A DNA stretch of 38,011 bases from a virus (taxonomy: Duplodnaviria; Heunggongvirae; Uroviricota; Caudoviricetes), in the IMG/VR virus record IMGVR_UViG_2585427747_000001, positions 1-38,011 of that record. The stretch is one strand, 5' to 3'. The notes below the pieces were generated by a model. It was not told the origin of the DNA. It made no database searches and saw nothing but the letters and a program-made list of their open reading frames with translations. Numbering within the stretch: the first letter of the stretch is position 1; each line of letters opens with the position of its first letter. This document shows, in pieces, positions 2,175 to 36,537 of this stretch. The translations under genes and the position numbers were made by a program.

Positions 2175-2301
2175 TTTGTTCTCCACGTATATGCGCTGCA
2201 CCGCGCTGAGTTTGGGTAAAAGGAAGCCCTCACCATCCGGTGATTATTGAGTTAATTACGTTTCCATAAATGCCCCCGCAGGGGCATTTGCAGTAATGAA
2301 A

Positions 2302-3126: not shown

Positions 3127-3191
3127 AATAAGTCCTCACTATATAAAGATATTCAGTGATGAGATAAATAATCAGTTAATTAAAAACGATA

Positions 3192-4974: not shown

Positions 4975-5667
4975 TTAATTATGTCTCTTAAGGGTTTGCG
5001 ACTGACTGATTAAGACCTTTCCAAAGACCATGAATCGGTGTTCGTTTTCGCTAGTAATTCCCCATTCACGGTAAATCTGGTTATCAGAAATCACCAGCAG
5101 TTTGTCAGGAATCATTTGAAGTCTTTTAACGTATATTTTGTCATCAAAACCAAAGACATATATACCATCACCATCAAACTGATTGATGCTGACATCAACG
5201 AAGATGAGATCTCCTGGCTCAATGGTTGGACACATACTGTCCCCACGAACGTTGATAACTTTGATGTGATTGGCTGGTCGTCCGCCGAACATTGATACAG
5301 CATTATCAGTTCTGTATTCGATGGCATGAATCACATCAATGACATCACCGCCCTGGATAAGGCCATTTCCCGCACTGGCACTGATATCCAGCATTTCAAT
5401 ACGGAACACATCCTTCACCTGCGCAACATCCTCATTATTACTGTTTTTATATACAGTATTACTTTTGTGGGCAGAGGTAAAGAGATCAGCAATATCAACA
5501 CCTAAGCTCTTGGCAATATTACTCAGTGTTTGTTCGGTAAATTGTTTTTGCTTACCCGTTTCTAAGCGCGAGATGTTCGCCGCATCTACTCCTATTGCTT
5601 CAGCGAGATCGGCGATTTTCATGTTCTTCGCTTGGCGAAGTTGTCTGACTCGGTTTCCTATGTTCAT
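4975..5667 (-). CDS. CI-like prophage repressor (N-terminal HTH, C-terminal S24 LexA-type peptidase domain)
   Basis: N-terminal HTH (RVRQLRQAKNMKIADLAEAIGVDAANISRLETGKQ); 230 aa; divergent from a cro-like gene with operators between. Confidence 0.8.
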   Translation of the reverse strand: MNIGNRVRQLRQAKNMKIADLAEAIGVDAANISRLETGKQKQFTEQTLSNIAKSLGVDIADLFTSAHKSNTVYKNSNNEDVAQVKDVFRIEMLDISASAGNGLIQGGDVIDVIHAIEYRTDNAVSMFGGRPANHIKVINVRGDSMCPTIEPGDLIFVDVSINQFDGDGIYVFGFDDKIYVKRLQMIPDKLLVISDNQIYREWGITSENEHRFMVFGKVLISQSQTLKRHN

Positions 5668-11522: not shown

Positions 11523-11539
11523 TTTTGTGGAGAAAGTTG

Positions 11540-11890
11540 ATGCGTGATATGTATGAAGTATTGGACCGCTGGGGAGCATGGGCTGCAGCAGATAACAGTG
11601 GCGTGGACTGGCAGCCGATAGCAGCAGGCTTCAAGGGGCTTTTACCTCATGGCAAAAAGTCACGGATTCAGTGTGATGATGACGAAGGCATTATGATAGA
11701 CAGTTGTGTGGCTCGGTTGAGAAGGTATAAACCAGAGGAATATGAGCTCATCATAGCCCACTTTGTTATTGGTATCTCATTACGCACTATTGCCAAAAAG
11801 AGAAGGTGTTCAGATGGCACGATTAGAAAGGAATTGCAAACTGCAATTGGTTTTGTAGAGGGTATTACGAGCGTTATTGCATGTAAATAA
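11540..11890 (+). CDS. Late-gene antiterminator Q (QuuD-type)
   Basis: MRDMYEVLDRWGAWAAADNSGVDWQPIAAGFKGLL… closely parallels QuuD-type Q proteins; start trimmed to the internal Met. Confidence 0.75.
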   Translation: MRDMYEVLDRWGAWAAADNSGVDWQPIAAGFKGLLPHGKKSRIQCDDDEGIMIDSCVARLRRYKPEEYELIIAHFVIGISLRTIAKKRRCSDGTIRKELQTAIGFVEGITSVIACK

Positions 11891-12096: not shown

Positions 12097-13380
12097 CTAT
12101 GACCGTGAAAAGTAGTGATGGTTCAGTTCTTTTGCAAAATAGTGCTTACGTTTAACCCAGATAAAACCATCAGCTTTAGAAATGATTGCAACATCTATGG
12201 GGCCTCCCACTGTTTCAGTATCATCGGAGACCTTGCGCTTGAAAGCGGTTAAATTTACTAATGATTCAGCCATATAAGCTAAATCTTGCTTGGGTAAAAA
12301 CTCGATCATATTTACGACTTTGTCAACATAGTTTTCTCGGACAAAGCTATCAATACGCCCCTTGCAATCGGAAACAGTCCTGCGCACTACATCAACTATA
12401 GCATCCTTGGCTCCTTCGATATCTGAAGTGGGCACCAAATCTGTGATTACTGAATCAATACCATCAAGTAAATCGCCGATAGAACGTTGATACTCAGCAT
12501 GAAGATTTTGGATAAGATGTGAACTAGCTCCTTGCATGAAAGCAGAAACTTCATCCTCTTGCGCAAAGGGAGTCACTCCGCAATTAGGAGTGATGCAGCA
12601 CTTGTCAGCATCTGTGGTTTTCCTGATTTTATCATTAAAGAAGCCACAAACTTCATATGATAATACTTTAGGGTAATAGTCTTTATCGCCATAACCTGCA
12701 ATCACAATCCCAGAGACGGAACCAATATCACTTTGCTTGCATATCATAGCTGCCAATACATCACTAACTGCTTTTGTCAACTGTGGAGTTATGGATATTG
12801 AATCAAAGTCACTAAACTTTTGAGCAATGATGCGTTGGGTAACTGATGAAGCATAGGTTTGGGCTGCTTGTTCATCATCCGGAGTAAAACCATCAAAGTA
12901 ATTAATATCAGATAATTTTGTAAGGAGATCGTTGCAATAATTCGTGAGGTCTGTAACAAATTGATTCTTATCGAAGTTAACGAAATATGTTGGTTCGAGA
13001 CCTTCAGAAAAAGCATCAACAAGCATGCTGAATACAATCTCGCTCAGGAAGTGATAAAGATGAGCCTCACGCATACCTGGTGTGATGATTGATTTAGCCG
13101 ACTGTAGATAATTGAAGAAATCCTCAGCATATTCCTCCAAAGAGTCAAAACATTTAGAGCCTAAATCCTTTCTATAAGCCTTAATGATAAGCTCCCATGG
13201 AGCTGTGCAGAGATCACCAGTTCCATATACCATCAAACCTACAGGATGATGTTTAGTTAGAGCGAAAAGCTTTTCAGCGCCATTATAGATTTTATGTTTG
13301 CCGCCTCCAGAAATCGTTACAGCTGAATCTGCGGCTAAAGCTACTGCGGTCTTGTTAAATACGGCTATTTCTGCTGTCAT
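12097..13380 (-). CDS. Proteasome/HslV-like Ntn-hydrolase-domain protein (427 aa); AT-rich accessory gene in the Q-to-lysis slot
   Basis: N-terminus MTAEIAVFNKTAVALAADSAVTIS…VGLMVYGTGD mirrors HslV (Thr after the initiator Met, Asp at mature position 17, downstream Lys); C-terminal GGPIDVAIISKADGFIWV resembles the proteasome beta C-terminal strand; opposite strand to its neighbours; visibly low GC. Confidence 0.6.
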   Translation of the reverse strand: MTAEIAVFNKTAVALAADSAVTISGGGKHKIYNGAEKLFALTKHHPVGLMVYGTGDLCTAPWELIIKAYRKDLGSKCFDSLEEYAEDFFNYLQSAKSIITPGMREAHLYHFLSEIVFSMLVDAFSEGLEPTYFVNFDKNQFVTDLTNYCNDLLTKLSDINYFDGFTPDDEQAAQTYASSVTQRIIAQKFSDFDSISITPQLTKAVSDVLAAMICKQSDIGSVSGIVIAGYGDKDYYPKVLSYEVCGFFNDKIRKTTDADKCCITPNCGVTPFAQEDEVSAFMQGASSHLIQNLHAEYQRSIGDLLDGIDSVITDLVPTSDIEGAKDAIVDVVRRTVSDCKGRIDSFVRENYVDKVVNMIEFLPKQDLAYMAESLVNLTAFKRKVSDDTETVGGPIDVAIISKADGFIWVKRKHYFAKELNHHYFSRS

Positions 13381-22168: not shown

Positions 22169-22492
22169 ATGCTTCTGACAATGGAAGAGATTAAAGCCCA
22201 ACTCCGGCTGGATGAGGATTTCGATGCTGATGACCGCCATCTGCAACTGCTGGCCTGTGCGGCGCAAAAGCGGACGGAAACGTATCTGAACCGGAAGCTC
22301 TATGCACCGGATGAATCCATTCCGGACAGCGATCCGGACGGGCTGCACCTGCCGGATGATATTCGTCTGGGGATGCTGATGCTTATCAGCCATTTTTACG
22401 AAAACCGCTCGTCGGTTACGGAAGTGGAGAAACTCGACATGCCGCAGAGTTTTGGCTGGCTTGTCGGCCCGTACAGGTACTTTCCGCAATGA
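22169..22492 (+). CDS. Head-tail connector / DNA-packaging gp6-like protein
   Basis: Size, position and general resemblance. Confidence 0.6.
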   Translation: MLLTMEEIKAQLRLDEDFDADDRHLQLLACAAQKRTETYLNRKLYAPDESIPDSDPDGLHLPDDIRLGMLMLISHFYENRSSVTEVEKLDMPQSFGWLVGPYRYFPQ

Positions 22493-22899
22493 AAATTCGT
22501 CAGGCGCAGACCAGCGCAACCTACATTCTGCCGGACCCCGGTGAACTGAATAAACGCGTCCTGATCCGCCTGCGGGTGGATATGCCCGCGGATAACTTTG
22601 GCGTGGAGCCTCAATACCCGGTTACGTTCCGGACATGGGCGAAGGTTATCCAGACCAGTGCCACCACCTGGCAGGAAACCGCGCAGACAGGGGACGCCAT
22701 CACCCATTACATCACCATTCGTTATCGCCGGGGGATCACCGCTGATTATGAGGTGGTCTGCGGTGACAGTGTGTACCGGGTGAAACGTCAGCGCGATCTG
22801 AACGGGGCGCGGCGCTTTCTGCTGCTGGAGTGTACGGAGCTGGGCGAATGTAGGCAGAGTCACGGAGGCAACAATGACGACTTCCTTTTTGCACGTTGA
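22489..22899 (+). CDS. Head closure / head-tail joining protein
   Basis: Size and position; overlaps neighbouring genes in the usual way. Confidence 0.55.
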   Translation: MKIRQAQTSATYILPDPGELNKRVLIRLRVDMPADNFGVEPQYPVTFRTWAKVIQTSATTWQETAQTGDAITHYITIRYRRGITADYEVVCGDSVYRVKRQRDLNGARRFLLLECTELGECRQSHGGNNDDFLFAR

Positions 22900-23380
22900 T
22901 TTTCAGCAGCCCGCGGAGATGCGCTTTAACCGCGCCCGTGTCCGGCGGGCGTTTGTCACGATTGGTCAGCGTCATATGCGTGATGCCCGTCGGCTGGTGA
23001 TGCGCCGTGCGCGGTCGGCACCGGGTGAAAACCCCGGTTATCAGACCGGACGCCTGGCTCGTTCGATTGGTTACATGGTACCCAGAGCCAGTAAACATCG
23101 CCCTGGTTTTATGGCACGTATAGCCCCTAACCAGCGTAATGGAGAGGGAAACCGCCGTATCACCGGTGATTTTTATCCGGCTTTTTTGTTCTATGGCGTG
23201 AGGCGAGGGGCAAAGCGTCGTCGCAGCCATCATCGTGGTGCATCCGGTGGCAGCGGCTGGCGACTGGCTCCACGTAATAACTTCATGGTGGAAACGCTTG
23301 AAAAGAACCGCAGCTGGACACGCTATTTTCTGGCGCGGGAATTGCGTAAATCACTGAAGCCGGAGCGACGACACAGATGA
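22874..23380 (+). CDS. HK97 gp10-like tail-completion/neck protein
   Basis: Size and position; Arg-rich sequence. Confidence 0.55.
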   Translation: MTTSFLHVDFQQPAEMRFNRARVRRAFVTIGQRHMRDARRLVMRRARSAPGENPGYQTGRLARSIGYMVPRASKHRPGFMARIAPNQRNGEGNRRITGDFYPAFLFYGVRRGAKRRRSHHRGASGGSGWRLAPRNNFMVETLEKNRSWTRYFLARELRKSLKPERRHR

Positions 23381-23937
23381 AACTGACGCCTGTTATTGCT
23401 GCACTGCGTGCCCGCTGTCCGTATTTTGAAAACCGGGTTGCAGGCGCGGCCCAGTTCAAAAATCTGCCGGAGGTCGGAAAGCTGAAACTCCCGGCGGCAT
23501 ATGTTGTACCGGGTGATGATTCTCCGGGAGAAAACAAAAGCCAGACCGACTACTGGCAGGAGCTGAAAGAGGGTTTCTCCGTGGTTGTCATACTGAGTAA
23601 CGGGCGTGATGAGCGCGGTCAGTTTGCCTCGTATGATGTGGTGGACGATGTCCGGCAGATGCTCTTTAAGGCTCTGCTGGGCTGGAACCCGGAGGCGTGC
23701 GGTAACCCGATTACCTATGACGGCGGCACGCTGCTGGATCTGAATCGTCATGAGCTGATTTATCAGTTCGATTTTTCGGTCATCAGCGAGCTGACTGAAG
23801 ACGATACCCGCCAGCAGGATGATCTGAACAGTCTGGATGAACTGCAAACGCTGGCGATTGATGTTGATTATCTCGAGCCCGGTAACGGGCCTGACGGCGA
23901 TATCGAACATCACACCGAAATAACCCTTCCTTCCTGA
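23377..23937 (+). CDS. Tail/neck protein preceding the sheath (function uncertain)
   Basis: 186 aa; translationally coupled to its neighbours. Confidence 0.5.
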   Translation: MKLTPVIAALRARCPYFENRVAGAAQFKNLPEVGKLKLPAAYVVPGDDSPGENKSQTDYWQELKEGFSVVVILSNGRDERGQFASYDVVDDVRQMLFKALLGWNPEACGNPITYDGGTLLDLNRHELIYQFDFSVISELTEDDTRQQDDLNSLDELQTLAIDVDYLEPGNGPDGDIEHHTEITLPS

Positions 23938-23945
23938 GGATCCTC

Positions 23946-24116
23946 ATGTTTGTCAAACCTGTTAAAGGGCGGTCAGTTCCTGACCCTGCCCGCGGCGACC
24001 TTTTGCCCGCCGAAGGGCGAAATGTTGACGAGAACAACTACTGGCTGCGCCGTGAAGCAGCGGGTGATATCCGGCGCGTGAATAAAAAGGTGAATACCGA
24101 TGACGATAAGCTTTAA
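23946..24116 (+). CDS. Small protein (~57 aa) immediately upstream of the tail sheath gene
   Basis: ORF below the 60-aa cutoff of the track (MFVKPVKGRSVPDPARGDLLPAEGRNVDENNYWLRREAAGDIRRVNKKVNTDDDKL); GAGGA RBS upstream; coordinates ±2. Confidence 0.4.
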   Translation: MFVKPVKGRSVPDPARGDLLPAEGRNVDENNYWLRREAAGDIRRVNKKVNTDDDKL

Positions 24117-25596
24117 CACCATTCCGTCGAATACGCTGGTTCCGTTGTTTTATGCGGAAATGGATAACCAGGCGGCGAATACTGCACAGGACAGCGGGGC
24201 ATCGTTGCTGATTGGTCACGCCAATAACGGTGCAGAGATTGTTGCCAACAGTCTGGTGCTGATGCCGTCGGCAGACTATGCACGCCAGATTTGTGGTGCG
24301 GGAAGTCAGCTGGCGCGTATGGTTGAGGCTTATCGCCAGACCGACCCGTTTGGTGAGCTGTATGTGATTGCCGTTCCTGAATCCACGGGCGCGGCGGCAA
24401 CAGTTACGCTGACGGTGACCGGGGCGGCAACCGAAACCGGCACGGTGAATGTTTATGTGGGACGTACCCGCGTGCAGGCACCGGTGACCAACGGCGATAA
24501 CGTCACGACGATTGCCAGCAGTATCAAAGATGCCATCAATGCAGTTCCGGCCCTGCCGTTTACGGCCTCATCTTCGGCTGGCGTGGTCACACTGACCGCG
24601 CGTCATAAGGGGCTTTGCGGGAATGAAATTCCTGTCAGCCTCAATTACTACGGCTTTGGTGGGGGCGAAGTGCTGCCTGCGGGCGTACAGATTGCCGTGG
24701 CGACGGGGACCGCCGGAACGGGCTCTCCTGTTCTCACCGGCGCGGTGGCTGCAATGGCGGATGAGCCGTTTGATTATATCGGCCTGCCGTTCAACGACAC
24801 GGCCTCCGTTAACACGCTGGTGACCGAGATGAACGATACCAGCGGTCGCTGGAGCTATGCGCGTCAGCTGTATGGTCATGTGTATACGGCAAAGATCGGC
24901 ACGCTGTCAGAACTGGTGACCGCTGGTGACCAGTTTAACCAGCAGCACATTACCCTGGCGGGGTACGAAAAAGAGACCCAGACGCCTGCTGACGAGCTGG
25001 CGGCAAGCCGTACCGCCCGCGCAGCGGTGTTTATTCGCAACGATCCGGCACGTCCCACGCAGACCGGTGAGCTGGTGGGTATGCTGCCTGCGCCGAAGGG
25101 GAAACGGTTCACGATGACCGAACAACAGACCCTGCTGTCTCATGGCGTGGCAACGGCGTATGTCGAAAGCGGGGTACTGCGCATTCAGCGTGATGTCACC
25201 ACGTACAGGAAAAACGCTTACGGGGTTGCGGATAACAGCTACCTCGACAGTGAGACACTGCATACCAGCGCGTATGTACTGCGCAAACTGAAATCCGTCA
25301 TTACCAGTAAGTACGGGCGTCACAAGCTTGCCAGTGACGGTACCCGCTTTGGTCCCGGTCAGGCGATTGTCACCCCGGCGGTGATCAAAGGGGAACTGCT
25401 GGCAACCTACCGTCAGCTTGAGCGTGCGGGCATCGTGGAAAACTACGAACTGTTTAAGCAGTACCTGGTTGTGGAGCGTGATGCCAGCGATCCGAACCGC
25501 CTGAACACGCTGTTCCCGCCTGACTATGTTAACCAGTTGCGTGTCTTTGCCGTGGTTAACCAGTTCCGTCTTCAGTATTCAGAGGAGTCCGCATAA
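24100..25596 (+). CDS. Contractile tail sheath protein
   Basis: 498 aa; followed by tube, chaperone and tape-measure genes. Confidence 0.8.
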   Translation: MTISFNTIPSNTLVPLFYAEMDNQAANTAQDSGASLLIGHANNGAEIVANSLVLMPSADYARQICGAGSQLARMVEAYRQTDPFGELYVIAVPESTGAAATVTLTVTGAATETGTVNVYVGRTRVQAPVTNGDNVTTIASSIKDAINAVPALPFTASSSAGVVTLTARHKGLCGNEIPVSLNYYGFGGGEVLPAGVQIAVATGTAGTGSPVLTGAVAAMADEPFDYIGLPFNDTASVNTLVTEMNDTSGRWSYARQLYGHVYTAKIGTLSELVTAGDQFNQQHITLAGYEKETQTPADELAASRTARAAVFIRNDPARPTQTGELVGMLPAPKGKRFTMTEQQTLLSHGVATAYVESGVLRIQRDVTTYRKNAYGVADNSYLDSETLHTSAYVLRKLKSVITSKYGRHKLASDGTRFGPGQAIVTPAVIKGELLATYRQLERAGIVENYELFKQYLVVERDASDPNRLNTLFPPDYVNQLRVFAVVNQFRLQYSEESA

Positions 25597-25952
25597 TGGC
25601 CCGTATCGGGGGAACCTGTTATTTCAAAATTGACGGTCAGCAGCTATCGCTGACCGGCGGCATTGAGGTGCCCATGAACAGGACGGTCAATGATGACATC
25701 ATCGGCCTGGACGGTTCAGTGGACCGCAAGGAAACTCACCGTGCGCCTTATGTTAAAGGGACCTTCAAGGTGCCGAAGAATTTTCCGGTGAGCAAAATCA
25801 CCTCGTCTGATGAGATGACCATCACTGCCGAGCTGGCGAACGGTCAGGTCTATGTACTGTCGTCTGCCTGGCTGCACGGCGAAGCAAACCAGAATGCCGA
25901 AGAAGGGACGGTTGATCTTGAGTTCCACGGTGAAGAAGGGGATTACCAGTAA
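25596..25952 (+). CDS. Tail tube protein
   Basis: 118 aa; start overlaps the sheath stop (TAATG). Confidence 0.7.
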   Translation: MARIGGTCYFKIDGQQLSLTGGIEVPMNRTVNDDIIGLDGSVDRKETHRAPYVKGTFKVPKNFPVSKITSSDEMTITAELANGQVYVLSSAWLHGEANQNAEEGTVDLEFHGEEGDYQ

Positions 25953-26371
25953 TGAAAGAGCTTGAGTTAAAGAAACCGATTACCGCTCATGGTGAGACAC
26001 TCTCCGTACTGGAGTTTGATGAGCCCACCGGGAAAGATGTCCGCGAGCTGGGGTATCCCTACCAGATGAATCAGGATGAGTCCGTCAGACTTCTGGCGCA
26101 TGTGGTATCGAAATACATTGTGCGGCTGGCGAAAGTGCCGCAAAGCTCTGTCGACCAGATGTCTCCGGCAGACCTGAATGCAGCGGCGTGGCTTGTGGCT
26201 GGGTTTTTTCCTCCAGGCCTGACGGCTGAATACCTCACTGATCGCTTCTTTGACTGCGCCAGTTACTGGCGCATTAATCCTTTCGAATTGCTGAATATGC
26301 CGATCAGTGAAATTCCCTTACTGGTCAGTCAGGCAAACAGGATAGAGCAGGAGAAACGCACACATGGCTGA
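25952..26371 (+). CDS. Tail assembly chaperone
   Basis: Position between the tube and tape-measure genes; 139 aa. Confidence 0.6.
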   Translation: MKELELKKPITAHGETLSVLEFDEPTGKDVRELGYPYQMNQDESVRLLAHVVSKYIVRLAKVPQSSVDQMSPADLNAAAWLVAGFFPPGLTAEYLTDRFFDCASYWRINPFELLNMPISEIPLLVSQANRIEQEKRTHG

Positions 26372-28196
26372 ATTTGAGCTTAAGGCGTTGATCACCGGTG
26401 TCGACAGGCTTTCTCCCGCGCTGTCGAAAATGCAAAAGAAAATCCGGGGATTTAAACGCCAGGCGGAAGAAGCGTCACAGGGTGGGCTGGCGCTTGGTGG
26501 CGGACTGGCAGCGGGTCTGACGCTTTCCCTGAAATCTTATGCCGATCAGGAAAACGCCGCCACCGGGCTGAAAGTCGCTATGATGGATGCGAACGGCGAG
26601 GTTGGAAAGCGCTTTCAGGACATCAATAAACTGGCTATTGGCCTGGGTAACCAGCTACCCGGTACAACGGCTGATTTCCAGAACATGATGCAGATGCTGG
26701 TGCGTCAGGGGATCCCGGCAGAAAACATTCTGAGTGGTGTGGGTAAAGCGACAGCTTATCTTGCGGTACAACTGAAAAAAACACCGGAAGCGGCTGCTGA
26801 GTTTGCTGCAAAGATGCAGGATGCTACCGGAACGGCGTCAGAAGACATGATGGGGCTGTTCGACACTATCCAGAAGGCGTTTTATCTGGGCGTGGACGAT
26901 ACCAACATGTTGTCCTTCTTCACTAAAACCAGCTCTGTTCTGAAGATGGTGAACAAGGACGGTCTTCAGGCTGCACAGAGCCTTGCCCCCATCAGCGTCA
27001 TGATGGATCAGATGGGGATGAACGGGGAGTCGGCAGGTAACGCCCTGCGAAAAGTTATCCAGTCCGGATTAAGCGTTAAGAAAATCAGGGACGTCAATAA
27101 AATCATGGCCCGCCAGAAACTCGGGGTACAGCTCGATTTTACTGACGGCAAAGGGAGTTTTGGCGGTCTTGATAACATGTTCAGGCAACTGGCAAAGCTG
27201 CGAAAACTGACCGACGTTAAACGAACTGGTGTACTTAAGGCAATATTTGGTGATGATGCCGAAACCCTTCAGGTGGTCAATGCACTAATCGATAAAGGAA
27301 AGGATGGCTACGATCAGATCCAGCAGAAGATGAATAAACAGGCCAGCCTGAATAAACGTGTTCAGGCCCAGCTTGGTACGCTGTCCAACCTGTGGGAGGC
27401 AATGACAGGGACCGCAACTAACGGCCTTGCGGCTATTGGCGGCGCATTTTCTGGTGACGCTAAAAATATCACGCAATGGCTGGGGGAGTTGGGGGAGAAA
27501 TTCACGAAGTTTGCGGATGAAAATCCCCGGGTTATTCGCGGCGTCGTCGGGCTTGCTGCCGGTCTTGCGATTCTGAAACTGGGATTGATGGGCGTTGGCG
27601 GTGCCATCAGTATTGTCAGCAGGATCATGTCGATGACGCCGATTGGCATGATTGCGACGGCGATAGCCCTGGCTGCGGGATTAATTATCACTAACTGGGA
27701 TGTTGTCGGACCTTATTTTAAGAAACTCTGGGAAACCATTGGTCCTTATTTTGAGGCTGGCTGGGAACTCCTTAAGAAAGTTTTTGCCTGGTCGCCGCTG
27801 GGGATGGTGATCAATAACTGGGGGCCGGTTGTTAAGTGGTTTCAGGATATGTGGGACAAGCTGAAGCCAATTATTGAGTGGTTTACCGACAGTTCCGGTG
27901 ACACGGTCGATGCCATTAACTCTGCGCAGTGGGGCGCGGGTGCTTATGATGCTTATGGGACGGGAATACCGGCGCGGGGATACACACCTTATCCGGCGGT
28001 AGATCCGGCTCAGTCAAACAACGCCTCCGATGCCACAGGCCCGAATCCCTTCATGATTAACAAAGCTATCGCGCCAAAAGTTGATGGCGAGATCAAGGTT
28101 TCATTTATGAATATGCCACTAGGTATGCGGGTTACGGAAACACGTTCCAGTGGCATTGATATTAATCACGATGTTGGGTACACCAGATTTAGGTAA
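26364..28196 (+). CDS. Tail tape measure protein
   Basis: 610 aa; Ala/Gly-rich helical regions and hydrophobic segments typical of tape measures. Confidence 0.8.
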   Translation: MAEFELKALITGVDRLSPALSKMQKKIRGFKRQAEEASQGGLALGGGLAAGLTLSLKSYADQENAATGLKVAMMDANGEVGKRFQDINKLAIGLGNQLPGTTADFQNMMQMLVRQGIPAENILSGVGKATAYLAVQLKKTPEAAAEFAAKMQDATGTASEDMMGLFDTIQKAFYLGVDDTNMLSFFTKTSSVLKMVNKDGLQAAQSLAPISVMMDQMGMNGESAGNALRKVIQSGLSVKKIRDVNKIMARQKLGVQLDFTDGKGSFGGLDNMFRQLAKLRKLTDVKRTGVLKAIFGDDAETLQVVNALIDKGKDGYDQIQQKMNKQASLNKRVQAQLGTLSNLWEAMTGTATNGLAAIGGAFSGDAKNITQWLGELGEKFTKFADENPRVIRGVVGLAAGLAILKLGLMGVGGAISIVSRIMSMTPIGMIATAIALAAGLIITNWDVVGPYFKKLWETIGPYFEAGWELLKKVFAWSPLGMVINNWGPVVKWFQDMWDKLKPIIEWFTDSSGDTVDAINSAQWGAGAYDAYGTGIPARGYTPYPAVDPAQSNNASDATGPNPFMINKAIAPKVDGEIKVSFMNMPLGMRVTETRSSGIDINHDVGYTRFR

Positions 28197-28203
28197 AGAC
28201 GAA

Positions 28204-28225
28204 CAGGGAGGGCCGCCCCTCCCTG
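28204..28225. terminator. GC-rich hairpin (cagggaggg / ccctccctg) between the convergent tape-measure gene and the minus-strand accessory gene
   Basis: Read directly from the sequence. Confidence 0.55.
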
Positions 28226-28228
28226 AAC

Positions 28229-28675
28229 TTACTGTGCGAACACGCAATTTCGGCCTGATGGGGAGCCGACAATTCTGGACATTTTTTCGCAAATAACAGT
28301 TACTTGTTCTCCTTTTTTAAGAGCAGCAGCTGTTGATTTTTCAGAGTCTTGCATCTCCATTCTTGCTGGCATGAATTCATTTTCAGTTCTGAATTTAATA
28401 ATTATAGAGTCAGTAAAGTCCTTATCAATGGATTGTACGATACCTCTAACGGCGATTAATTTACCTTTTAACTGTTCATCGGTAGCGACTTCATTTTCTT
28501 CATACTCTTTAAACAGCTGTCGAGCAGTAGTGTTGTAGATTTCTTTTTGCGGTGCCGCAGCTTCCGTATCGGATGAGTATGAAGAATTAGAGCCTTTATC
28601 GTTATTGCCTGCAAAATATCCAATAATCACCAACCCGATGAAAATATATAAAATCCATTTTAATAATTTCTTCAT
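28229..28675 (-). CDS. Membrane-anchored/secreted OB-fold-like protein; AT-rich accessory gene inside the tail module
   Basis: N-terminal signal/TM (MKKLLKWILYIFIGLVIIGYFAG), no lipobox Cys; the mature region resembles small periplasmic OB-fold proteins; opposite strand to all neighbours; AT-rich. Confidence 0.55.
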   Translation of the reverse strand: MKKLLKWILYIFIGLVIIGYFAGNNDKGSNSSYSSDTEAAAPQKEIYNTTARQLFKEYEENEVATDEQLKGKLIAVRGIVQSIDKDFTDSIIIKFRTENEFMPARMEMQDSEKSTAAALKKGEQVTVICEKMSRIVGSPSGRNCVFAQ

Positions 28676-28737
28676 GTTATCACCTTAATGCTAATAATTT
28701 ATATAGTTACAAATGGTAATGGCTACCACTACAAATT

Positions 28738-30114
28738 ATGGCATTACCAGTAAATATTACTACTGATAATAAATATGGGACTTATATGACGTGGAAAGAC
28801 AGGCTTCAGGATGCGTCATTTCGCAGCGTGCCGTTTAAGGTTGAAGAAGAAAGTGCGGGAACCGGTCGTCGTGTGGAAACACATGAATACCCGAACCGCG
28901 ACAAACCCTATACCGAAGACCTGGGGAAAATCACTTTCCGCCCGTCCATCACGGCTTATGTGGTGGGAGATGACTGCTTTGACCAGCGTGATCGCCTGAT
29001 TGAAGCGCTGAATAAACCCGGTCCCGGCACGCTTGTCCACCCGACATACGGTGAGTTGAAAGTCTGTGTTGACGGGGAAGTTCGGGTCAGCACATCGAAG
29101 AGTGAAGGGCGTATTGTCCGCTTTGACCTGAAGTTTGTCGAAGCGGGAGAACTCTCTTACCCCACTTCAGGTGCGGCGACGGCGCAGACGCTGATGTCAT
29201 CCTGTTCTGCACTGGATGACTGCATCAGTGACAGCTTCAGTGGTTTCAGTATCGATGGCGTGGCAGATTTTGTGCAGAACGACGTCGTCGGTAATGCCAG
29301 CACAATGCTTGGGTATGTTTCTGATGCGATGAAAGTGGTGGATTCTGCCGTATCGGATGCCGCCAGACTGTTGCAGGGGGATATCTCGGTACTTCTGCCG
29401 CCGCCATCGTCAGGCAAAAATTTCGTTGAGCAGGTGCAGAAAATGTGGCGTACCGGGAAACGCCTTTATGGTAACGCCAGCGACCTGGTCACCATGATCA
29501 AAACGCTTTCCGGTGTCAGCCTCGGCAGCGATCTGCAACCGCGCGGCGTCTGGAAAACGGACAGTAAAACCACCGCCACGGCGACGCAGCAGCGTAATGT
29601 GGTTGCCAGCACCCTTCGTACGACCGCAATCAGCGAAGCGGCGTATGCCGTCACACGATTGCCTGCGCCCACAACTTCCGCGGTGATGCAGAATGCCGCA
29701 GTGGGGCAGGCAACAACACCCGCGCAGAGCACCGGCTGGCCTTCTGTCACGCATCCGGCACTGAACAATGCACCGGCGGTGAAAAACACGGTTGACCTGC
29801 CAACGTGGGAAGAACTGACCGACATTCGCGACACACTGAATACGGCAATTGATAAGGAGTTGTCCCGTACAACCAGTGATGCGCTGTTTCTGGCGCTGCG
29901 CCGGGTGAAAGCAGATCTGAATGCGGATATCAACACGCGCCTTGAACAGTCTGCACGGATCATTCAGCGCACGCCGGATGAGGTTTTACCCGCGCTGGTG
30001 CTGGCGGCGACCTGGTTTGATAACGCGGCGCGTGACGCGGACATTATCCGGCGTAATGCCATTACGCATCCCGGCTTTGTGCCGGTGATCCCTCTGAAGG
30101 TGCCAGTGCAATGA
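28738..30114 (+). CDS. Mu N-like DNA circularization protein
   Basis: 458 aa; position after the tape measure. Confidence 0.65.
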   Translation: MALPVNITTDNKYGTYMTWKDRLQDASFRSVPFKVEEESAGTGRRVETHEYPNRDKPYTEDLGKITFRPSITAYVVGDDCFDQRDRLIEALNKPGPGTLVHPTYGELKVCVDGEVRVSTSKSEGRIVRFDLKFVEAGELSYPTSGAATAQTLMSSCSALDDCISDSFSGFSIDGVADFVQNDVVGNASTMLGYVSDAMKVVDSAVSDAARLLQGDISVLLPPPSSGKNFVEQVQKMWRTGKRLYGNASDLVTMIKTLSGVSLGSDLQPRGVWKTDSKTTATATQQRNVVASTLRTTAISEAAYAVTRLPAPTTSAVMQNAAVGQATTPAQSTGWPSVTHPALNNAPAVKNTVDLPTWEELTDIRDTLNTAIDKELSRTTSDALFLALRRVKADLNADINTRLEQSARIIQRTPDEVLPALVLAATWFDNAARDADIIRRNAITHPGFVPVIPLKVPVQ

Positions 30115-31190
30115 ACGACAATGTCACGCTACGGGTAGATGGCCGGGAGTGGAATGGCTGGACATCGGTGCGCATCGGTGCCGGTATTGAACGGCTGGCG
30201 CGGGATTTCAGTGTGGAGATCACTCGCCAGTGGCCGGGAGATGAGGGTATCACCACGCTTCAGCCGCGCATTAAAAACGGTTCAAAAGTGGAAGTGCTGA
30301 TTGGTGATGAGCTGGTGATCACCGGCTGGGTGGAGGCGACTCCCGTTCGTTACGATGCCCGTTCGGTCAGCACCGGTATTGCCGGACGTAGTCTGACGGC
30401 TGACCTGATTGACTGTGCAGCCGAACCGACACAGTTTAACGGACGCTCGCTGGTGCAGATTGCGCAGGCGCTTGCTGCGCCTTTCGGCATTGAGGTGGTG
30501 AACAGCGGTGCGCCGTCGGGTGTTATTCCTGATGTTCAGCCTGATCACGGTGAAACGGTGATTGAGGTAATCAACAAAATACTCGGTCAGCAGCAGGCGC
30601 TGGCTTACGACGACCCGCACGGCAGGCTGGTGATTGGCGGTATTGGCTCAACGCGGGCACATACCGCGCTGGTACTTGGGGAAAACATCCTTTCCTGTGA
30701 TACGGAGAAGAGTATCCGGGAGCGGTTTTCTGTTTACCAGGTGGCGGGGCAGCGTGCCGGAAACGACGATGATTTCGGTGAGGCCACCACCACCGCGCTG
30801 CGGGCCCGCACAGAGGACGCATTTATTGCCCGTTACCGTCCGATGTATATCAGGCAGACAGGGCAGGCCACGGGGGCAGGCTGTATTGCGCGTGCTGACT
30901 TTGAAGCCCGAAAACGGGCGGCGCGGACGGATGAAACCACCTATGTGGTGCAGGGCTGGCGACAGGGTAACGGTACGCTGTGGCAGCCCAACCAGCGGGT
31001 GATTGTCTTCGATCCGGTCTGTGGTTTCGACAATACCGAACTGCTTGTCTCGGAAGTCACGTTTACTCAGGACCAGAACGGCACCCTGACGGAAATCCGT
31101 GTCGGCCCGCCTGATGCTTATCTGCCTGAACCCGAAGCCCCCGGCTCGCGGAAAAAGAAAAAAGCCAGAGTACAGGAGGACCCGTTCTGA
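30111..31190 (+). CDS. Mu P-like (gp44) baseplate hub protein
   Basis: 359 aa; position; overlaps the upstream stop. Confidence 0.65.
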   Translation: MNDNVTLRVDGREWNGWTSVRIGAGIERLARDFSVEITRQWPGDEGITTLQPRIKNGSKVEVLIGDELVITGWVEATPVRYDARSVSTGIAGRSLTADLIDCAAEPTQFNGRSLVQIAQALAAPFGIEVVNSGAPSGVIPDVQPDHGETVIEVINKILGQQQALAYDDPHGRLVIGGIGSTRAHTALVLGENILSCDTEKSIRERFSVYQVAGQRAGNDDDFGEATTTALRARTEDAFIARYRPMYIRQTGQATGAGCIARADFEARKRAARTDETTYVVQGWRQGNGTLWQPNQRVIVFDPVCGFDNTELLVSEVTFTQDQNGTLTEIRVGPPDAYLPEPEAPGSRKKKKARVQEDPF

Positions 31191-31738
31191 TGAGGACGAT
31201 TGAAGCCATGCAGCGACAACTTCTCGGCCTGATTGGGCGGGCCGTGGTGAAAAGCATCAGTGCCGCCACGAAATGTCAGACCGTGGATGTGTCCCTGATT
31301 GCCGGTGAACCCAAAGCCGGGGTTGAACATCTTGAACCCTACGGTTTTACCGCAAGGGCAAACAGCGGTGCGGAAGCGGTGGTGTTGTTTCCGGATGGCG
31401 ACCGTTCTCATGCGGTGGTTGTTACGGTGTCGGACCGGCGCTACCGCCTGAAAGGGCTGCAGACGGGTGAGGTGGCTGTCTATGACGATCAGGGGCAGTC
31501 TGTGACGCTGACCCGGGAGGGGATCGTGGTGGACGGTGCAGGGAAAACGATCACGTTTCGCAATGCACCTGAAGCACGTTTTGAAATGGATCTGGAAGTG
31601 ACCGGACAGGTGAAAGACCTGTGCGACTCCGGCGGCACCACCATGTCAGCGATGCGGCTTGCCTATAACGGGCATCGTCACAGAGAGAACGGTCAGGGCA
31701 GTAACACCGACAAACCTGATAAAGCGATGGAGGCATGA
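31190..31738 (+). CDS. Baseplate assembly protein V / spike (gp45-like)
   Basis: 182 aa; position in the Mu-like baseplate gene order. Confidence 0.6.
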   Translation: MRTIEAMQRQLLGLIGRAVVKSISAATKCQTVDVSLIAGEPKAGVEHLEPYGFTARANSGAEAVVLFPDGDRSHAVVVTVSDRRYRLKGLQTGEVAVYDDQGQSVTLTREGIVVDGAGKTITFRNAPEARFEMDLEVTGQVKDLCDSGGTTMSAMRLAYNGHRHRENGQGSNTDKPDKAMEA

Positions 31739-32163
31739 TGGAACTGTGGCTGACGGTGAACGGTAAACGCACCTGTGCCAGCGCACCGCTGGATCCGCTG
31801 ACCCGCGCCGTGGTGATTTCCCTGTTTACCTGGCGGCGGGCGGAGCCTGATGACAACGCCGACGTCCCGATGGGATGGTGGGGGGATACCTGGCCTGCGG
31901 TACAGAATGACCGTTACGGCTCCCGACTGTGGCTGCTTCAGCGCAGCAAACTGACCAATCAGCTGGTGCAGACGGTAAGGGGGTATATCCGCGAATGCCT
32001 GCAATGGATGATTGATGACGGCGTGGTGTCCCGTATTGATCTGGATATCCGCCGCACCGGGATTAATGAACTGGGTAACAGTATCACTCTCTGGCGTCGT
32101 GACGGACCGGTAATGATTTCTTTTGATGATCTGTGGAGTGCGATAACGCATGGCGGACAGTGA
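31735..32163 (+). CDS. GP46-family baseplate protein
   Basis: 142 aa; position in the baseplate cluster. Confidence 0.6.
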   Translation: MMELWLTVNGKRTCASAPLDPLTRAVVISLFTWRRAEPDDNADVPMGWWGDTWPAVQNDRYGSRLWLLQRSKLTNQLVQTVRGYIRECLQWMIDDGVVSRIDLDIRRTGINELGNSITLWRRDGPVMISFDDLWSAITHGGQ

Positions 32164-33208
32164 ATTTCAGCGCCCGACGCTGGCAGAAAATATCAGTATG
32201 CTCCGTAACGATTTATTCGCCAGGCTGGACGTCAGCGACACGCTCCGGCGCATGGATGAAGACGTGCGGGCAAAGGTGTATGCGGCGGCGCTGCATACGG
32301 TTTACGGGTACATCGATTATCTGGCAATGAATATGCTGCCTGACCTGTGCGATGAGTCCTGGCTGGCGCGACATGCTGCGATGAAACGGTGTCCGCGCAA
32401 GGGGGCCACGGCTGCCAGCGGGTATATGCGCTGGGAAGGTGTCAGCGATGGCCTGAAGGTGACTGCCGGGAGCGTGATTCAGCGCGATGACCTGGTTCAG
32501 TACACGGCAACTGCCGATGCAACCAGCTCCGGTGGTGTCCTACGTGTGCCGATCACTTGCTCAACTACAGGCGCGGTCGGTAACGCTGACGACGGTACGT
32601 CATTAATCCTGGTCACGCCGGTGAATGGTCTGCCGTCTTCCGGTGTTGCAGATACCCTGACTGGCGGATTCGATACTGAAGATCTGGAAACGTGGCGCGC
32701 CCGCGTCATTGAGCGGTATTACTGGACGCCGCAGGGCGGGGCTGACGGGGACTATGTCGTCTGGGCTAAAGAAGTGCCCGGCATTACCCGCGCATGGACA
32801 TACCGTCACTGGATGGGAACGGGAACTGTCGGTGTGATGATTGCCAGCAGTGACCTGATTAATCCCATTCCGGAAGAATCAACGGAAACGGCGGCAAGAC
32901 AACATATCGGGCCACTGGCCCCGGTGGCAGGCTCTGATTTGTATGTGTTCAGGCCGGTGGCACATACGGTGGATTTTCATATCCGCGTGACGCCGGACAC
33001 ACCGGAAATACGGGCTGCCATCACCGCGGAGTTGCGTTCGTTCCTGCTGCGTGATGGTTATCCGCAGGGAGAACTGAAGGTATCGCGTATCAGTGAGGCG
33101 ATTTCCGGTGCGAACGGGGAATACAGCCATCAGTTGCTTGCACCGGCAGACAATATCTCCATTGCAAAAAATGAACTGGCGGTTCTGGGGACGATTTCAT
33201 GGACGTGA
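32150..33208 (+). CDS. Baseplate J-like protein (gp47)
   Basis: 352 aa; position in the baseplate cluster. Confidence 0.65.
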
Positions 33209-33783
33209 CAAACGATGATTACATCCGTCTGTTGTCGGCACTGTTGCCCCCCGGTCCGGCGTGGTCAGCCAGCGATCCGGCGATTGCCGGTGCGGCACCG
33301 TCATTAACCCGCGTTCATCAGCGTGCGGATGCCCTGATGCGGGAGCTGGATCCGCGCACCACCACTGAACTGATAAACCGCTGGGAGCGTCTGTGCGGCC
33401 TGCCGGATGAATGTATTCCGGCGGGAACGCAGACCCTTCGTCAGCGTCAGCAACGGCTGGATGCGAAGGTTAATCTGGCGGGCGGCATCAATGAGGATTT
33501 TTACCTTGCACAGCTTGCTGCCCTGGGCAGACCAGACGCCACCATCACGCGATACGACAAAAGCACGTTCACCTGCTCATCGGCCTGTACTGACGCAGTG
33601 AATGCGCCGGAATGGCGGTATTACTGGCAGGTCAACATGCCAGCCGCCACCAACACCACCTGGATGACATGTGGCGATCCCTGTGATTCCGCACTGCGTA
33701 TCTGGGGCGACACCGTTGTCGAGTGCGTGCTTAACAAACTCTGCCCTTCGCATACCTATGTAATTTTTAAATATCCGGAGTAA
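33199..33783 (+). CDS. Mu gp48 / YmfQ-like tail protein (DUF2313)
   Basis: 194 aa; Cys-containing C-terminus; precedes the tail fibre. Confidence 0.55.
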
Positions 33784-33786
33784 TCC

Positions 33787-34719
33787 ATGCATCGTATAGA
33801 CACGAAAACCGCGCAGAAGGATAAGTTCGGCGCGGGTAAGAACGGTTTTACCCGTGGTAACCCCCAGACCGGCACACCTGCCACCGATCTGGATGATGAC
33901 TACTTTGACATGTTGCAGGAAGAACTTTGTAGCGTGGTGGAGGCCTCCGGTGCCAGCCTGGAGAAGGAGCGGCACGACCAGTTGCTTACCGCGCTTCGTG
34001 CGCTGCTGTTAAGCCGCAAGAATCCGTTTGGTGATATCAAATCGGATGGCACGGTGAAAACGGCTCTCGAAAACCTTGGTTTGGGAGATGGCTCGGGGCG
34101 TTACTGCAAAACTGTCGTTTTTTCATCGTCGGGTTCATATACGTGGCCAGCTGACGTAAAACGAATTGACGTTATTCTGACTGCGGCTGGCGGCGGTGGC
34201 GGTGGATGTAACGCGGAGAACGCAAATCAGACATTTTCAGGGGCTGGCGGAGGAGCCGGAGGTACTGTTTTTGCCACTATTTATGCGACAGACAACGATG
34301 CCGGGCCAGGAACCTATACAGTGACAATTGGCAGCGGTGGTAGTGGTGCCAATGGGGCAGGGTCTGGAAATAATGGCGGTAATAGTTCGTTCATGACATT
34401 AACTGCGCTCGGTGGCCAGGGTGGGCAATGGGGCGGCGCTACAAATACCGCTGGCGGGCGCGGTGGCTCAGGCTCTGGCGGTTATAAAACTGAACAAGGC
34501 GGAGACGGTTCAGACGGACAGGCGGGCCAGGCGCTATTAGTAGGCAATGGGGCATCGAGCTATTGGGGTGGCGGCGGCCGCGCTGGGCAACTGAGCGGTA
34601 ATCCTGGAGTTTGCTCTGGCTCCGGCGGCGGGGGTGCATACGATAATAGCTATTCACACACGTCAGGACGTGGCGGGCACGGAGCTAATGGCGTGCTGGT
34701 AATTCGGGAGTACATGTAA
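33787..34719 (+). CDS. Tail fibre protein with Gly-rich C-terminal repeats
   Basis: Conserved tail-fibre-like N-terminus ([47 protein letters not shown]); long Gly-rich low-complexity region; followed by a tail fibre assembly gene. Confidence 0.7.
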
Positions 34720-35124
34720 ATGAATGATATCTATGCAGTTGTTGATAATAACGTTGTTATTAATGTCATTATCTGGGACGGAATTTCTGAATGGAAACCA
34801 GAGGCTGGTAATTTAGTTCCGTTAAACGGCGATGCTGGCATCGGTTGGTCATATTCAGACGGAGTATTTACCGCGCCACCTCCCCCAGAACGCTCTCACA
34901 ACGCGTTAGTTGCGGAGGCTGAGCTGCAGAAATCAGCACTACTGACCGTAGCAAATAACACAATAGCACCGCTGCAGGATGCCGTTGATTTGGAAATGGC
35001 GACAGACGATGAACAGGCGTTACTGCTGGCGTGGAAAAAATACAGGGTACTGCTGAACCGTGTTGATACCTCAGCGGCACCCGAAATAGAGTGGCCTACG
35101 CAACCGGGGGAGCGGGCCAGTTGA
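34720..35124 (+). CDS. Tail fibre assembly protein (Tfa)
   Basis: C-terminal region (…[33 protein letters not shown]) typical of Tfa chaperones. Confidence 0.7.
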
Positions 35125-35412: not shown

Positions 35413-36537
35413 TTAAGATATTCTTTTAGCTATAGAATGACCTATATTTATAAACGGTTTTTCTATTACGTTATATATCAAGTAAGATAGGCTTATAGAA
35501 ATTATGAGCGATGATATATAAATGGCAAACGATCTATGTTCAGTGCTAACACCAATGCTGGAACCGTAAAACTCAATAAACTGTATAACAGGAACATGAA
35601 TCAGATAAAGTGAATATGATATTCCACCAAGAGCAACAAGTGATTTATTGAATGAAATAACTTTATTATTTTCTAGAATAATAACACATAAAACAATCAG
35701 AAATGCAATATATGCAGATCGCGTCAAACCATGTCCTTCAGACACCCCATTAAGCCAAAAAACAAACATCATTCCTAGAATGAAAACGCATAAACTATTT
35801 ATAATAGCATTATTCATTCTTTTATGCCTAAGTAAAGGCATTGTCTCTGATATAATCATCCCTAAAATGAAATCATATACTATAGGGTTGCCTATGAATC
35901 CTATATGAGAAAACACTCCTGTTTTTGCAATATTGAATGATTGGGCGTCAATTACTACCGAGTGGTTAAAGTAAAGAGAAATAATTGTACTTACAGCAAC
36001 TAGAAAACATGATGTGATTAATACCCTGTATTTTATACTTAATGACATGGATATTGCGAAAATAAAATAAAAATATATCTCGTACCCAAGTGACCATGAA
36101 ACAATTAGTGTTCCCCACCCATAATATGGCGGTAGAGTTGAGCCATCTAAAGGGATGAGAAGAAATGATTTTATAATATTATTTATAGAAAAAACACCAC
36201 CCCATGATACGCCTGTGTAAATATTGTGGTAAAAAAGAAAAACATAAACGCTTAATACTATTGCGTAAACAGGATAAATTCTAAAAAATCTCTTTACAAG
36301 AAATGAAGCGGTATTTCTTAAAGATGTTTTCGCTAAGTTTTTAGTTGAGTATGATATTATAAATCCGCTTATTATAAAAAACAATTCAACTCCAAATATA
36401 GCATTCGCGGTTATCCTGTCCATGAAAGAACCAGGATCTACTTGCCCGAAAAGACCTCTATTATGACCAATAGCTACAGCAAGAGCTGCAATTCCACGAA
36501 GCGCTTCTATTCCGTATAATTTATCTGTTTTCATCAA
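35413..36537 (-). CDS. Acyltransferase family 3 integral membrane protein (O-antigen acetylase-like lysogenic conversion gene)
   Basis: 374 aa, ~10 predicted TM segments; N-terminal YGIEALRGIAALAVAIGH motif typical of the OafA/Oac acyltransferase-3 family; very AT-rich; next to the integrase at attR. Confidence 0.75.
   Translation of the reverse strand: MMKTDKLYGIEALRGIAALAVAIGHNRGLFGQVDPGSFMDRITANAIFGVELFFIISGFIISYSTKNLAKTSLRNTASFLVKRFFRIYPVYAIVLSVYVFLFYHNIYTGVSWGGVFSINNIIKSFLLIPLDGSTLPPYYGWGTLIVSWSLGYEIYFYFIFAISMSLSIKYRVLITSCFLVAVSTIISLYFNHSVVIDAQSFNIAKTGVFSHIGFIGNPIVYDFILGMIISETMPLLRHKRMNNAIINSLCVFILGMMFVFWLNGVSEGHGLTRSAYIAFLIVLCVIILENNKVISFNKSLVALGGISYSLYLIHVPVIQFIEFYGSSIGVSTEHRSFAIYISSLIISISLSYLIYNVIEKPFINIGHSIAKRIS

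Follow-up and report, generated by a model that had tools for sequence, protein, structure and literature searches.

The window analysed here is a stretch of 38,011 nucleotides (nt) of viral DNA, positions 1 to 38,011 of IMG/VR virus record IMGVR_UViG_2585427747_000001, and it holds a lambdoid-type prophage with a Mu-like contractile tail, a member of the SfV/SfI/SfII group of phages of Shigella and E. coli. The minus-strand gene at 28229-28675, placed between the tail tape measure gene and the DNA circularization protein gene, is very probably a moron that encodes a membrane-tethered periplasmic protein of Pfam family PF12869, homologous to the lactococcal phage-exclusion protein Sie2009. Taken as a whole, the explanation that this moron is a cassette with its own promoter and terminator, that its product is a periplasmic OB-fold protein, and that the function of this protein is superinfection exclusion is judged to be the probable one, with moderate confidence. 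The gene and the parts of its product are as follows.

28229..28675, minus strand: OB-fold protein gene of the Sie2009 family; 148 amino acids, ATG start; PF12869, PHROG 8545
28610..28666, minus strand: N-terminal hydrophobic helix, codons 4-22 (LLKWILYIFIGLVIIGYFA, preceded by MKK); anchor or signal sequence
28232..28543, minus strand: two helices and OB barrel, codons 45-148; predicted periplasmic

Homology to Sie2009

The best PHROG match of the window protein is 8545, 'superinfection exclusion Sie-like' (E 1.5e-49), and the same product name is given in the Tuc2009 RefSeq record to orf2, the gene known as sie2009, which is placed between the integrase and the repressor. Sie2009 itself matches PHROG 8545 at 1.7e-79 and PF12869 at 3.5e-11, and the NCBI name 'OB-fold protein' is common to the lactococcal homologues of Sie2009 and the E. 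coli gene. Alignment of the enterobacterial family profile to Sie2009 with hhalign gave a probability of 97.6% over 131 columns, and alignment of the same profile to a profile of Sie2009 homologues gave 98.5% (E 4e-15) over the OB core; by pairwise BLASTP, the window protein matches Sie2009 with E 1e-6 over 47 residues. A motif, Y-x-x-N-x-x-A-x-D-x-x-x-K-G-K, and a T-[DE]-N-x-F block are common to both proteins.

Sie2009 prevents DNA injection by heterologous lactococcal phages (PMC7693887 and PMC4737114, citing McGrath et al. 2002 and Mahony et al.). An earlier note on this DNA, made from the sequence alone, had suggested that the product may block incoming phage, and shared membership of the PHROG and Pfam families of Sie2009 gives that suggestion real support; exclusion by the window protein itself would follow by analogy. 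The likeness extends to the layout of the two proteins, each with a short N-terminus, a hydrophobic helix, a Ser/Gly-rich linker, the helix motif and an OB barrel, and both genes are accessory genes of temperate phages. They differ in that the host of the window prophage is Gram-negative, so that the domain would face the periplasm and not the cell wall; in that the enterobacterial subfamily has an invariant Cys pair, located in strands that do not align with Sie2009; and in that the window gene is an opposite-strand gene in the tail operon, whereas that of Sie2009 lies between integrase and repressor.

Predicted fold and topology

The match to PF12869 (tRNA_anti-like) scores 69.5 bits against a gathering cut-off of 23.5 (E 2.9e-19) and covers model positions 5-131 of 146. 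Besides PF12869, a Pfam scan at E up to 1 returned only a chance KOW match, and the family is present in all 89 homologues that have a precomputed Pfam match. A scan of NCBIfam gave no usable match, and a sequence search of the PDB with the family profile gave a chance match only (E 0.78). The AlphaFold model, made with 52 homologues, has a mean predicted local distance difference test score (pLDDT) of 86.7 and consists of a helix at residues 2-22, a disordered Ser/Asn-rich linker at residues 25-39, and, from residue 46 onwards, a pair of short helices followed by a beta-barrel (pLDDT 96-98). The OB fold that had been proposed from the sequence was thus recovered by structure prediction as a 3F1Z-type fold, in which N-terminal helices precede a five-stranded barrel. 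Structure 3F1Z is also the first structural neighbour and is followed by BRCA2, MCM10, RPA, Stn1 and class II aminoacyl-tRNA synthetases, whose OB domains bind single-stranded DNA or tRNA.

The N-terminal segment reaches a Kyte-Doolittle 19-residue maximum of 2.16, is preceded by the positive charges of MKKLLK, and has a hydrophobic counterpart in 79 of 90 homologues. Membrane targeting, also claimed in the earlier note, is supported by this predicted N-terminal hydrophobic helix, which has no lipobox and may be either an uncleaved anchor or a cleaved signal. Read by eye, the candidate signal peptidase sites are poor (G-Y-F-A|G) or weak (I-I-G|Y). NCBI names some homologues 'OB-fold putative lipoprotein'; a lipoprotein reading was rejected for the window protein, which has no Cys before residue 129.

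The OB domain carries an invariant motif, Y-x-x-N-E-V-A-x-D-E, and two invariant cysteines, C129 and C144, with exactly two Cys in the domain in 83 of 90 homologues. A lipobox replaces the helix in four homologues, and three have a zinc ribbon-helix-OB layout; zinc ribbon, helix and OB domain are likewise the layout of a Klebsiella phage homologue. The charged N-terminus and helix, the Cys pair, and the lipobox and zinc-ribbon variants together argue strongly for an extracytoplasmic OB domain that is tethered to the membrane. An isoelectric point (pI) of 5.2 and a net charge of about -2 make the mature domain mildly acidic, which argues against general DNA binding.

Coding status, composition and selection

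A chance open reading frame (ORF) at 28229-28675 is ruled out by the Pfam and PHROG E-values (2.9e-19 and 1.5e-49), and the copy in E. coli LD91-1 is annotated 'OB-fold protein' (WP_000734912.1). Alleles in the same slot and the same orientation are found in E. coli I3 (71% amino acid identity) and Buttiauxella (73%). In comparisons with the homologues from E. coli I3, Buttiauxella, Pantoea and Serratia, the proportion of non-synonymous differences (pN) is 0.15-0.25 and synonymous sites are saturated; where it could be calculated, the ratio of non-synonymous to synonymous substitution rates (dN/dS) is 0.05-0.11 for the window gene against the same-slot alleles of E. coli I3 and Buttiauxella and against a Serratia homologue. 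The frame is intact and under purifying selection in the diverged same-slot alleles of both E. coli and Buttiauxella. On these comparisons, 28229-28675 is a real gene under strong purifying selection.

The gene had been described as AT-rich, and the measured composition agrees: the G+C fraction (GC) is 0.371 in the ORF and 0.273 in the 110 nt at 28676-28785, against 0.546 and 0.569 in the flanking tail genes. All alleles have a GC of 0.37-0.40 regardless of host.

A moron cassette in a polymorphic slot

The gene lies within a cassette that is bounded by two conserved tail genes.

28197..28785, no strand: variable cassette (moron); about 590 base pairs (bp), GC 0.370; tape measure stop to circularization start
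26364..28196, plus strand: tail tape measure gene, left flank; PF10145
28786..30114, plus strand: DNA circularization protein gene, right flank; PF07157; corrected start

The tail and baseplate ORFs from about 22489 to 35124 are all on the plus strand, and most overlap or abut, so the gene is indeed, as first noticed, the lone minus-strand ORF in a plus-strand tail cluster; the members of this cluster whose identity was checked are the tape measure (PF10145), circularization (PF07157), tail fibre and fibre assembly genes. The junction of the tape measure and circularization genes is 93-97% identical to SfV, SfI and SfII phages and 99.3% identical to the E. coli LD91-1 prophage. Relatives diverge from the tape measure stop codon onwards, and similarity resumes about 10 nt ahead of the circularization ATG; these limits define the cassette as 28197-28785. 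For the circularization gene the correct start is 28786 (ATGACGTGG...), the point at which homology to every relative sets in and the start called by the NCBI annotation pipeline (PGAP); a start at 28738 was rejected, that ATG being inside cassette DNA.

Comparison with related prophages revealed the empty site that the earlier note had suggested looking for. An unoccupied slot is found in SfI, SfII, SfV and hundreds of E. coli prophages; in the three phages it consists of a spacer of about 58 nt, which the cassette replaces, with a hairpin and T-run (an annotated terminator in SfII) and a GGAG ribosome-binding site. Matches that span the junction are 1075 bp long in empty-site relatives and 1601 bp with the cassette, a difference of 526 bp. 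Of 5,426 complete E. coli genomes, 1,093 have the junction, and the slot was typed in an evenly spaced sample of 60 of them: about 24 (about 40%) were empty, about 14 held a gene for a protein of 176 amino acids, 4-5 the OB gene, 4 a PH-domain gene and 2-3 a gene for a protein of 225 amino acids; a further 11 matched the right flank only, with a divergent tape measure gene, as in SfIV.

Across all 5,426 genomes, OB cargo is present in 79, comprising 74 near-identical copies and five that are about 74% identical, and every copy that was inspected lies in the same slot. Three alternative cargoes occur: in 179 genomes the 176-amino-acid protein (PHROG 5485), with a hydrophobic segment at its N-terminus; in 28 a bacterial PH-domain protein (PF08000); and in 55 the 225-amino-acid protein (PHROG 1353), with a lipobox, LLGGC. 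They are unrelated, have no assigned function, and are represented in other E. coli prophages by the following genes.

L003:2089-2619, plus strand: alternative cargo gene, 176-amino-acid protein
L004:2053-2430, plus strand: alternative cargo gene, bacterial PH-domain protein
L005:2088-2765, plus strand: alternative cargo gene, 225-amino-acid lipobox protein

The accessions of the three alternative cargoes are WP_000679479.1, WP_001514801.1 and WP_000866660.1. Each is encoded on the plus strand, with the hairpin and ribosome-binding site retained ahead of the circularization gene. The window OB cassette has replaced this hairpin, and the Buttiauxella allele still has one. The hairpin and T-run upstream of the circularization ribosome-binding site lie at L002:2013-2051 in SfII, with equivalents in L003, L004, L005 and L018; the sequence varies and the position, in the middle of the late tail operon, is conserved. 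It is presumably read through under Q antitermination.

Morons have been defined by Juhala, Hendrix and colleagues (PMC3594210). The cassette is present or absent among close relatives whose flanks are 93-97% identical, its composition is deviant (GC 0.37 versus 0.55-0.57), and it has signals of its own, namely a clear terminator and, on the promoter side, only a conserved extended -10 element with a poor -35. By presence and absence and by composition it is a classical moron, and its transcription signals, of which the promoter is a probable one, agree with this. No flanking direct repeats, a sign of transposition, were found around the cassette, and recombination within the conserved flanks would be the simplest way for it to be exchanged, and a more likely one than transposition. 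A tblastn search of 50,697 phage records returned only 5-7 with distant homologues and no isolated phage with OB cargo in the slot, and the OB gene is therefore documented here solely in prophages.

Homologues elsewhere have varied contexts. That of Burkholderia phage Carl1 is downstream of the immunity repressor gene and co-directional with it; those of Bordetella phages adjoin the repressor; that of a Klebsiella phage is a single opposite-strand gene within the baseplate cluster; and that of Serratia is at a prophage end, near an acyltransferase gene. These contexts fit prophage-expressed accessory genes. In Pantoea-/Erwinia-like genomes, a variable island beside copC-copD-yebY holds the homologue (L023:3714-4133, and around 6001-6480 in L012, L013 and L014). 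A bPH_2 bacterial PH-domain gene lies near the OB homologue in one such island; this recalls the PH-domain cargo of E. coli and may be coincidence.

Transcription and translation signals

The gene is bracketed by the following signals.

28195..28225, minus strand: intrinsic terminator of the minus-strand gene; hairpin CAGGGAGGG-gcgg-CCCTCCCTG, tail TTCGTCTTTA
28680..28685, minus strand: Shine-Dalgarno sequence AGGTGA, 4 nt before the ATG; read directly from the sequence
28735..28743, minus strand: candidate extended -10 element, TG-c-CATAAT; relaxed scan
28757..28762, minus strand: weak -35, TAGTAA

The GC hairpin reported beside the gene is present at 28204-28225, with a 9-bp stem that includes seven G-C pairs. 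Its tail on the minus strand, TTCGTCTTTA, satisfies the T-run rule of the scan (5 T in 8 bases), and the folding energy of the terminator RNA is -20.4 kcal/mol (z -3.15), a value that none of 200 shuffled sequences equalled. No T-run follows it in the plus-strand reading, and the hairpin is therefore assigned as terminator of the minus-strand gene and not of the tape measure gene.

The AT-rich stretch on the other side had been called promoter-like, a description that holds for a conserved extended -10 element and fails in a strict sigma-70 scan, which was negative upstream of the gene. In the aligned upstream regions of three otherwise diverged alleles, the -10 element is the sole conserved island, reading TGc-CATAAT in the window, TGc-TATAAA in E. 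coli I3 (the 74%-identical allele) and TGc-GATAAA in Buttiauxella. The extended -10 at 28743..28735 is probably the promoter of the gene. An 11-of-12 match in the strict scan lies inside the coding region at 28428..28401 and was set aside as chance in AT-rich DNA. An 8-bp perfect inverted repeat around the -10 element, TGGTAATG / CATTACCA (28714-28721 and 28742-28749), was considered as an operator and rejected, since it is not kept in the diverged alleles; it is probably a chance occurrence. Rfam, searched over 28000-29000, gave no known RNA element and only a sub-threshold chance match to MALAT1.

Proposed function and alternatives

In the mechanism favoured here, the cassette would be transcribed in the lysogen on the minus strand, starting at the extended -10 promoter that it carries and stopping at its hairpin terminator, and during lytic growth late transcription driven by Q would pass antisense through it. 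The short positive N-terminus of the product would remain in the cytoplasm, the hydrophobic helix would span the inner membrane, and the flexible Ser/Asn-rich linker would present the OB domain in the periplasm, where a C129-C144 disulfide probably stabilises it. By analogy with Sie2009, this domain, held on the periplasmic side of the inner membrane, would interfere with the DNA-entry step of incoming phages; it would do so by binding a tail-tip or tape-measure-type ejection protein, or an inner-membrane component that these proteins use; adsorption would be unaffected.

A number of observations weigh against exclusion as the function. Similarity to Sie2009 is remote, with a core identity of about 27-36%, and the C-terminal strands with the Cys pair are unaligned; function may have diverged for these reasons. 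No study of a Gram-negative family member was found in the searchable literature, and PADLOC-DB 2.0 gave 0 families at E up to 1 and holds no model for the window protein. The position adjoining the tape measure gene is not specific to the OB gene, the slot being used by unrelated cargoes. The strict sigma-70 scan found no promoter upstream and the promoter is weak by consensus; H-NS commonly silences AT-rich foreign DNA in E. coli, and both points count against expression of the gene in the lysogen. Some of the Pantoea- and Erwinia-like homologues are in chromosomal islands that are not recognisable prophages and have an integrase fragment only. About 20 of the 74 near-identical E. coli copies, those of the 042 type, have a 143-bp deletion with TTA microhomology that takes the -10 element, the ribosome-binding site and codons 1 to about 24, which encode the membrane helix. 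Two decayed copies are listed here.

L006 (E. coli 042) 3032-3446: decayed OB gene; PGAP still calls a 128-amino-acid 'OB-fold protein'
L008 (E. coli EJN001) 2248-3311: decayed OB gene; 3' end truncated by IS1A, with the tape measure gene and everything upstream missing

From the truncated and IS1-cut copies it follows that the gene is often dispensable.

Among the alternatives, the one that survives best, itself unlikely, is that the protein is an envelope factor of lysogenic conversion with no part in phage exclusion, which would bind an oligosaccharide, peptidoglycan, lipopolysaccharide or a host protein and alter tolerance to stress, serum or antimicrobials, much as Bor or Lom benefit the host. 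OB folds bind oligosaccharides and proteins besides nucleic acids, and the acidic character of the mature domain (pI 5.2) accords with this reading, as does the persistence of homologues in Pantoea- and Erwinia-like islands without intact prophages; the same prophage also has another envelope-modifying moron, the Oac-like acyltransferase gene described below, and extra prophages alter the nisin and lysozyme sensitivity of lactococcal lysogens (PMC7693887). The only experimentally characterised member of the family, Sie2009, is however a phage-exclusion protein, and the window protein has no Pfam match to Bor, Lom, Ail or other envelope-factor families.

It is improbable that the protein acts as a periplasmic nucleic-acid binder whose OB domain captures incoming DNA, either phage DNA or conjugative single-stranded DNA, and blocks its passage, so that exclusion would come from binding DNA and not a phage protein. 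The structural neighbours after 3F1Z bind single-stranded DNA or tRNA, 3F1Z was deposited as a 'putative nucleic acid-binding lipoprotein', and TcdC, which is related to PF12869 by profile, binds G-quadruplex DNA in vitro (PMC3575817). The name of 3F1Z is nevertheless a structural-genomics guess, the mature domain has a net charge of about -2 and a pI of 5.2, and its invariant motif is acidic (NEVAxDE). Phage DNA is moreover thought to cross the periplasm in a protein conduit.

It is very unlikely that the gene is a passenger without function or a remnant in decay, an ORF that is real but at present neither expressed nor useful: the truncated and IS1-cut E. coli copies and the weak promoter consensus would fit such a passenger, and the window prophage may itself be defective (an extra G at the tail-chaperone frameshift site, described below), but the window copy is intact and identical or nearly so to dozens of others, dN/dS is 0.1 or less across genera, and the -10 element, Shine-Dalgarno sequence and terminator are retained. 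A role in the cycle of this prophage, as an accessory of tail assembly, lysis or injection, would suit the position in the tail module beside the tape measure gene, but is close to refuted by the absence of the gene from the viable phages SfI, SfII, SfV and SfIV and from most related prophages, by its orientation opposite to the late operon, its foreign composition and its replaceability by unrelated genes, and by the presence of homologues in the lysogeny modules of other phages.

Comparison with other known systems

HK97 gp15 is encoded by a moron in the tail operon, adjoining the tape measure gene, and is a small inner-membrane protein, expressed by the prophage, that blocks DNA entry and leaves the receptor untouched (PMC3594210). 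This protein, of the YebO family, is the closest functional and positional analogy among E. coli phages. It differs from the window protein in being a tiny membrane protein without an OB domain, and its gene is located upstream of the tape measure gene and, presumably, on the same strand as the tail genes. The Pfam scan at E up to 1 gave no similarity to YebO/gp15; no direct pairwise comparison with gp15 was run.

Other blockers of DNA entry encoded by phages or prophages, namely Ltp of Streptococcus thermophilus TP-J34, SieA of P22, Imm of T4 and Sim of P1, likewise act at the membrane or cell surface (PMC4737114, PMC10883804, PMC3952083), but belong to unrelated folds or families, PF12869 being the sole significant Pfam match of the window protein. 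With Sie2009 as query, no fusions of Sie2009-family proteins with Ltp domains were listed.

Two further proteins share the fold or match the PF12869 profile. Structure 3F1Z, from Klebsiella pneumoniae, is described as a lipoprotein, not as a helix-anchored protein, and its sequence identity to the window protein is 16-18%. TcdC of Clostridioides difficile is membrane-anchored, with a C-terminal domain that matches PF12869 by profile (PMC3575817), but its gene is a chromosomal, regulator-like one in the toxin locus, unconnected with phage exclusion.

The comparison with lom and bor of lambda drawn in the earlier note stands as a positional and conceptual one: these too are morons in or near late genes, expressed in the lysogen and acting on the envelope. 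It does not extend to the protein. Lom forms a beta-barrel in the outer membrane and Bor is a lipoprotein of that membrane, both tied to adhesion or serum resistance, whereas the predicted fold here is an OB barrel with one helix anchor, and Pfam gave no match to Bor or Ail/Lom.

Neighbouring genes of the prophage

Other genes of the prophage that help to place the cassette are listed below.

4975-5667, minus strand: CI-like repressor
11525-11890: antiterminator Q
33787-35124: tail fibre gene and its assembly gene
35413-36537, minus strand: O-acetyltransferase-like gene; PF01757
36678-37871, minus strand: integrase

The gene at 28229-28675 belongs to the tail module and not to the lysogeny module; the integrase is some 8 kb away and the repressor some 23 kb.

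Two further opposite-strand genes of low GC are present. The first, at 12097-13380 on the minus strand (GC 0.40; 427 amino acids), lies directly downstream of antiterminator Q and has a full-length match to PHROG 5990, of unknown function (E 1e-236), and no Pfam match; the position downstream of Q is the site of a moron described for SfIV (PMC3851460). The second, at 35413-36537 on the minus strand (GC 0.32), is flanked by the tail fibre assembly gene and the integrase gene, and its product is an Oac-like protein of the Acyl_transf_3 / O-acetyltransferase-like type (PF01757, PHROG 3333). This gene is probably a serotype-conversion gene that modifies the O-antigen.

The tail assembly chaperone gene at 25952-26371 has one extra G around 26198-26211 (GCTGGGTTTTTTCC) compared with its relatives. 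In SfII and E. coli LD91-1, JB2 and 042, the sequence reads ..GGT TTT TTC CTC CAG GCC TGA, giving a product of 89 amino acids and, by way of a classic -1 slippery site, T_TTT_TTC, an extended product. The extra G makes the extended frame continuous (an ORF of 139 amino acids), and the short product is lost. It may be a homopolymer sequencing error, or a mutation able to cripple tail assembly, in which case the prophage would be defective.

Significance

The PF12869/PHROG family, the moron concept, Sie-type exclusion and the database label 'OB-fold protein' are already known. Three points did not turn up in the searchable literature: an explicit connection of Sie2009 with the OB fold, a selected enterobacterial branch of the Sie2009 family in prophages, and a multi-cargo slot in the tail operon of SfV-type phages. 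The gene at 28229-28675 is in this respect a good, testable lead rather than a surprise.

A wider reading, possible though doubtful, is that the slot, with its four cargo types, is a dedicated exchange hotspot of small, mostly envelope-targeted accessory genes that act on entry, and that exclusion of the Sie2009 type is ancient and common to Gram-positive and Gram-negative bacteria, with a tethered OB domain binding the tape-measure/tail-tip complex directly.

Proteins of the Sie2009 type have long been used as a textbook example of exclusion encoded by prophages in dairy lactococci, and in the literature consulted neither their fold nor their target is described. The same family, whose OB fold is modelled with confidence, is in circulation among the prophages of E. 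coli and other Enterobacterales, and E. coli is far better served by genetics, phage panels and membrane-topology tools. Should no phenotype be found, the gene would simply be another accessory gene without an assigned role. If the wider reading is true, it would offer an E. coli model in which to solve the action of Sie2009, unsolved more than 20 years after its description, and if the exclusion phenotype holds, escape mutants would quickly reveal the DNA-entry step that the OB domain blocks. The polymorphic cargo slot in the tail operon is useful for the annotation of prophages and for the search for further entry-blocking genes.

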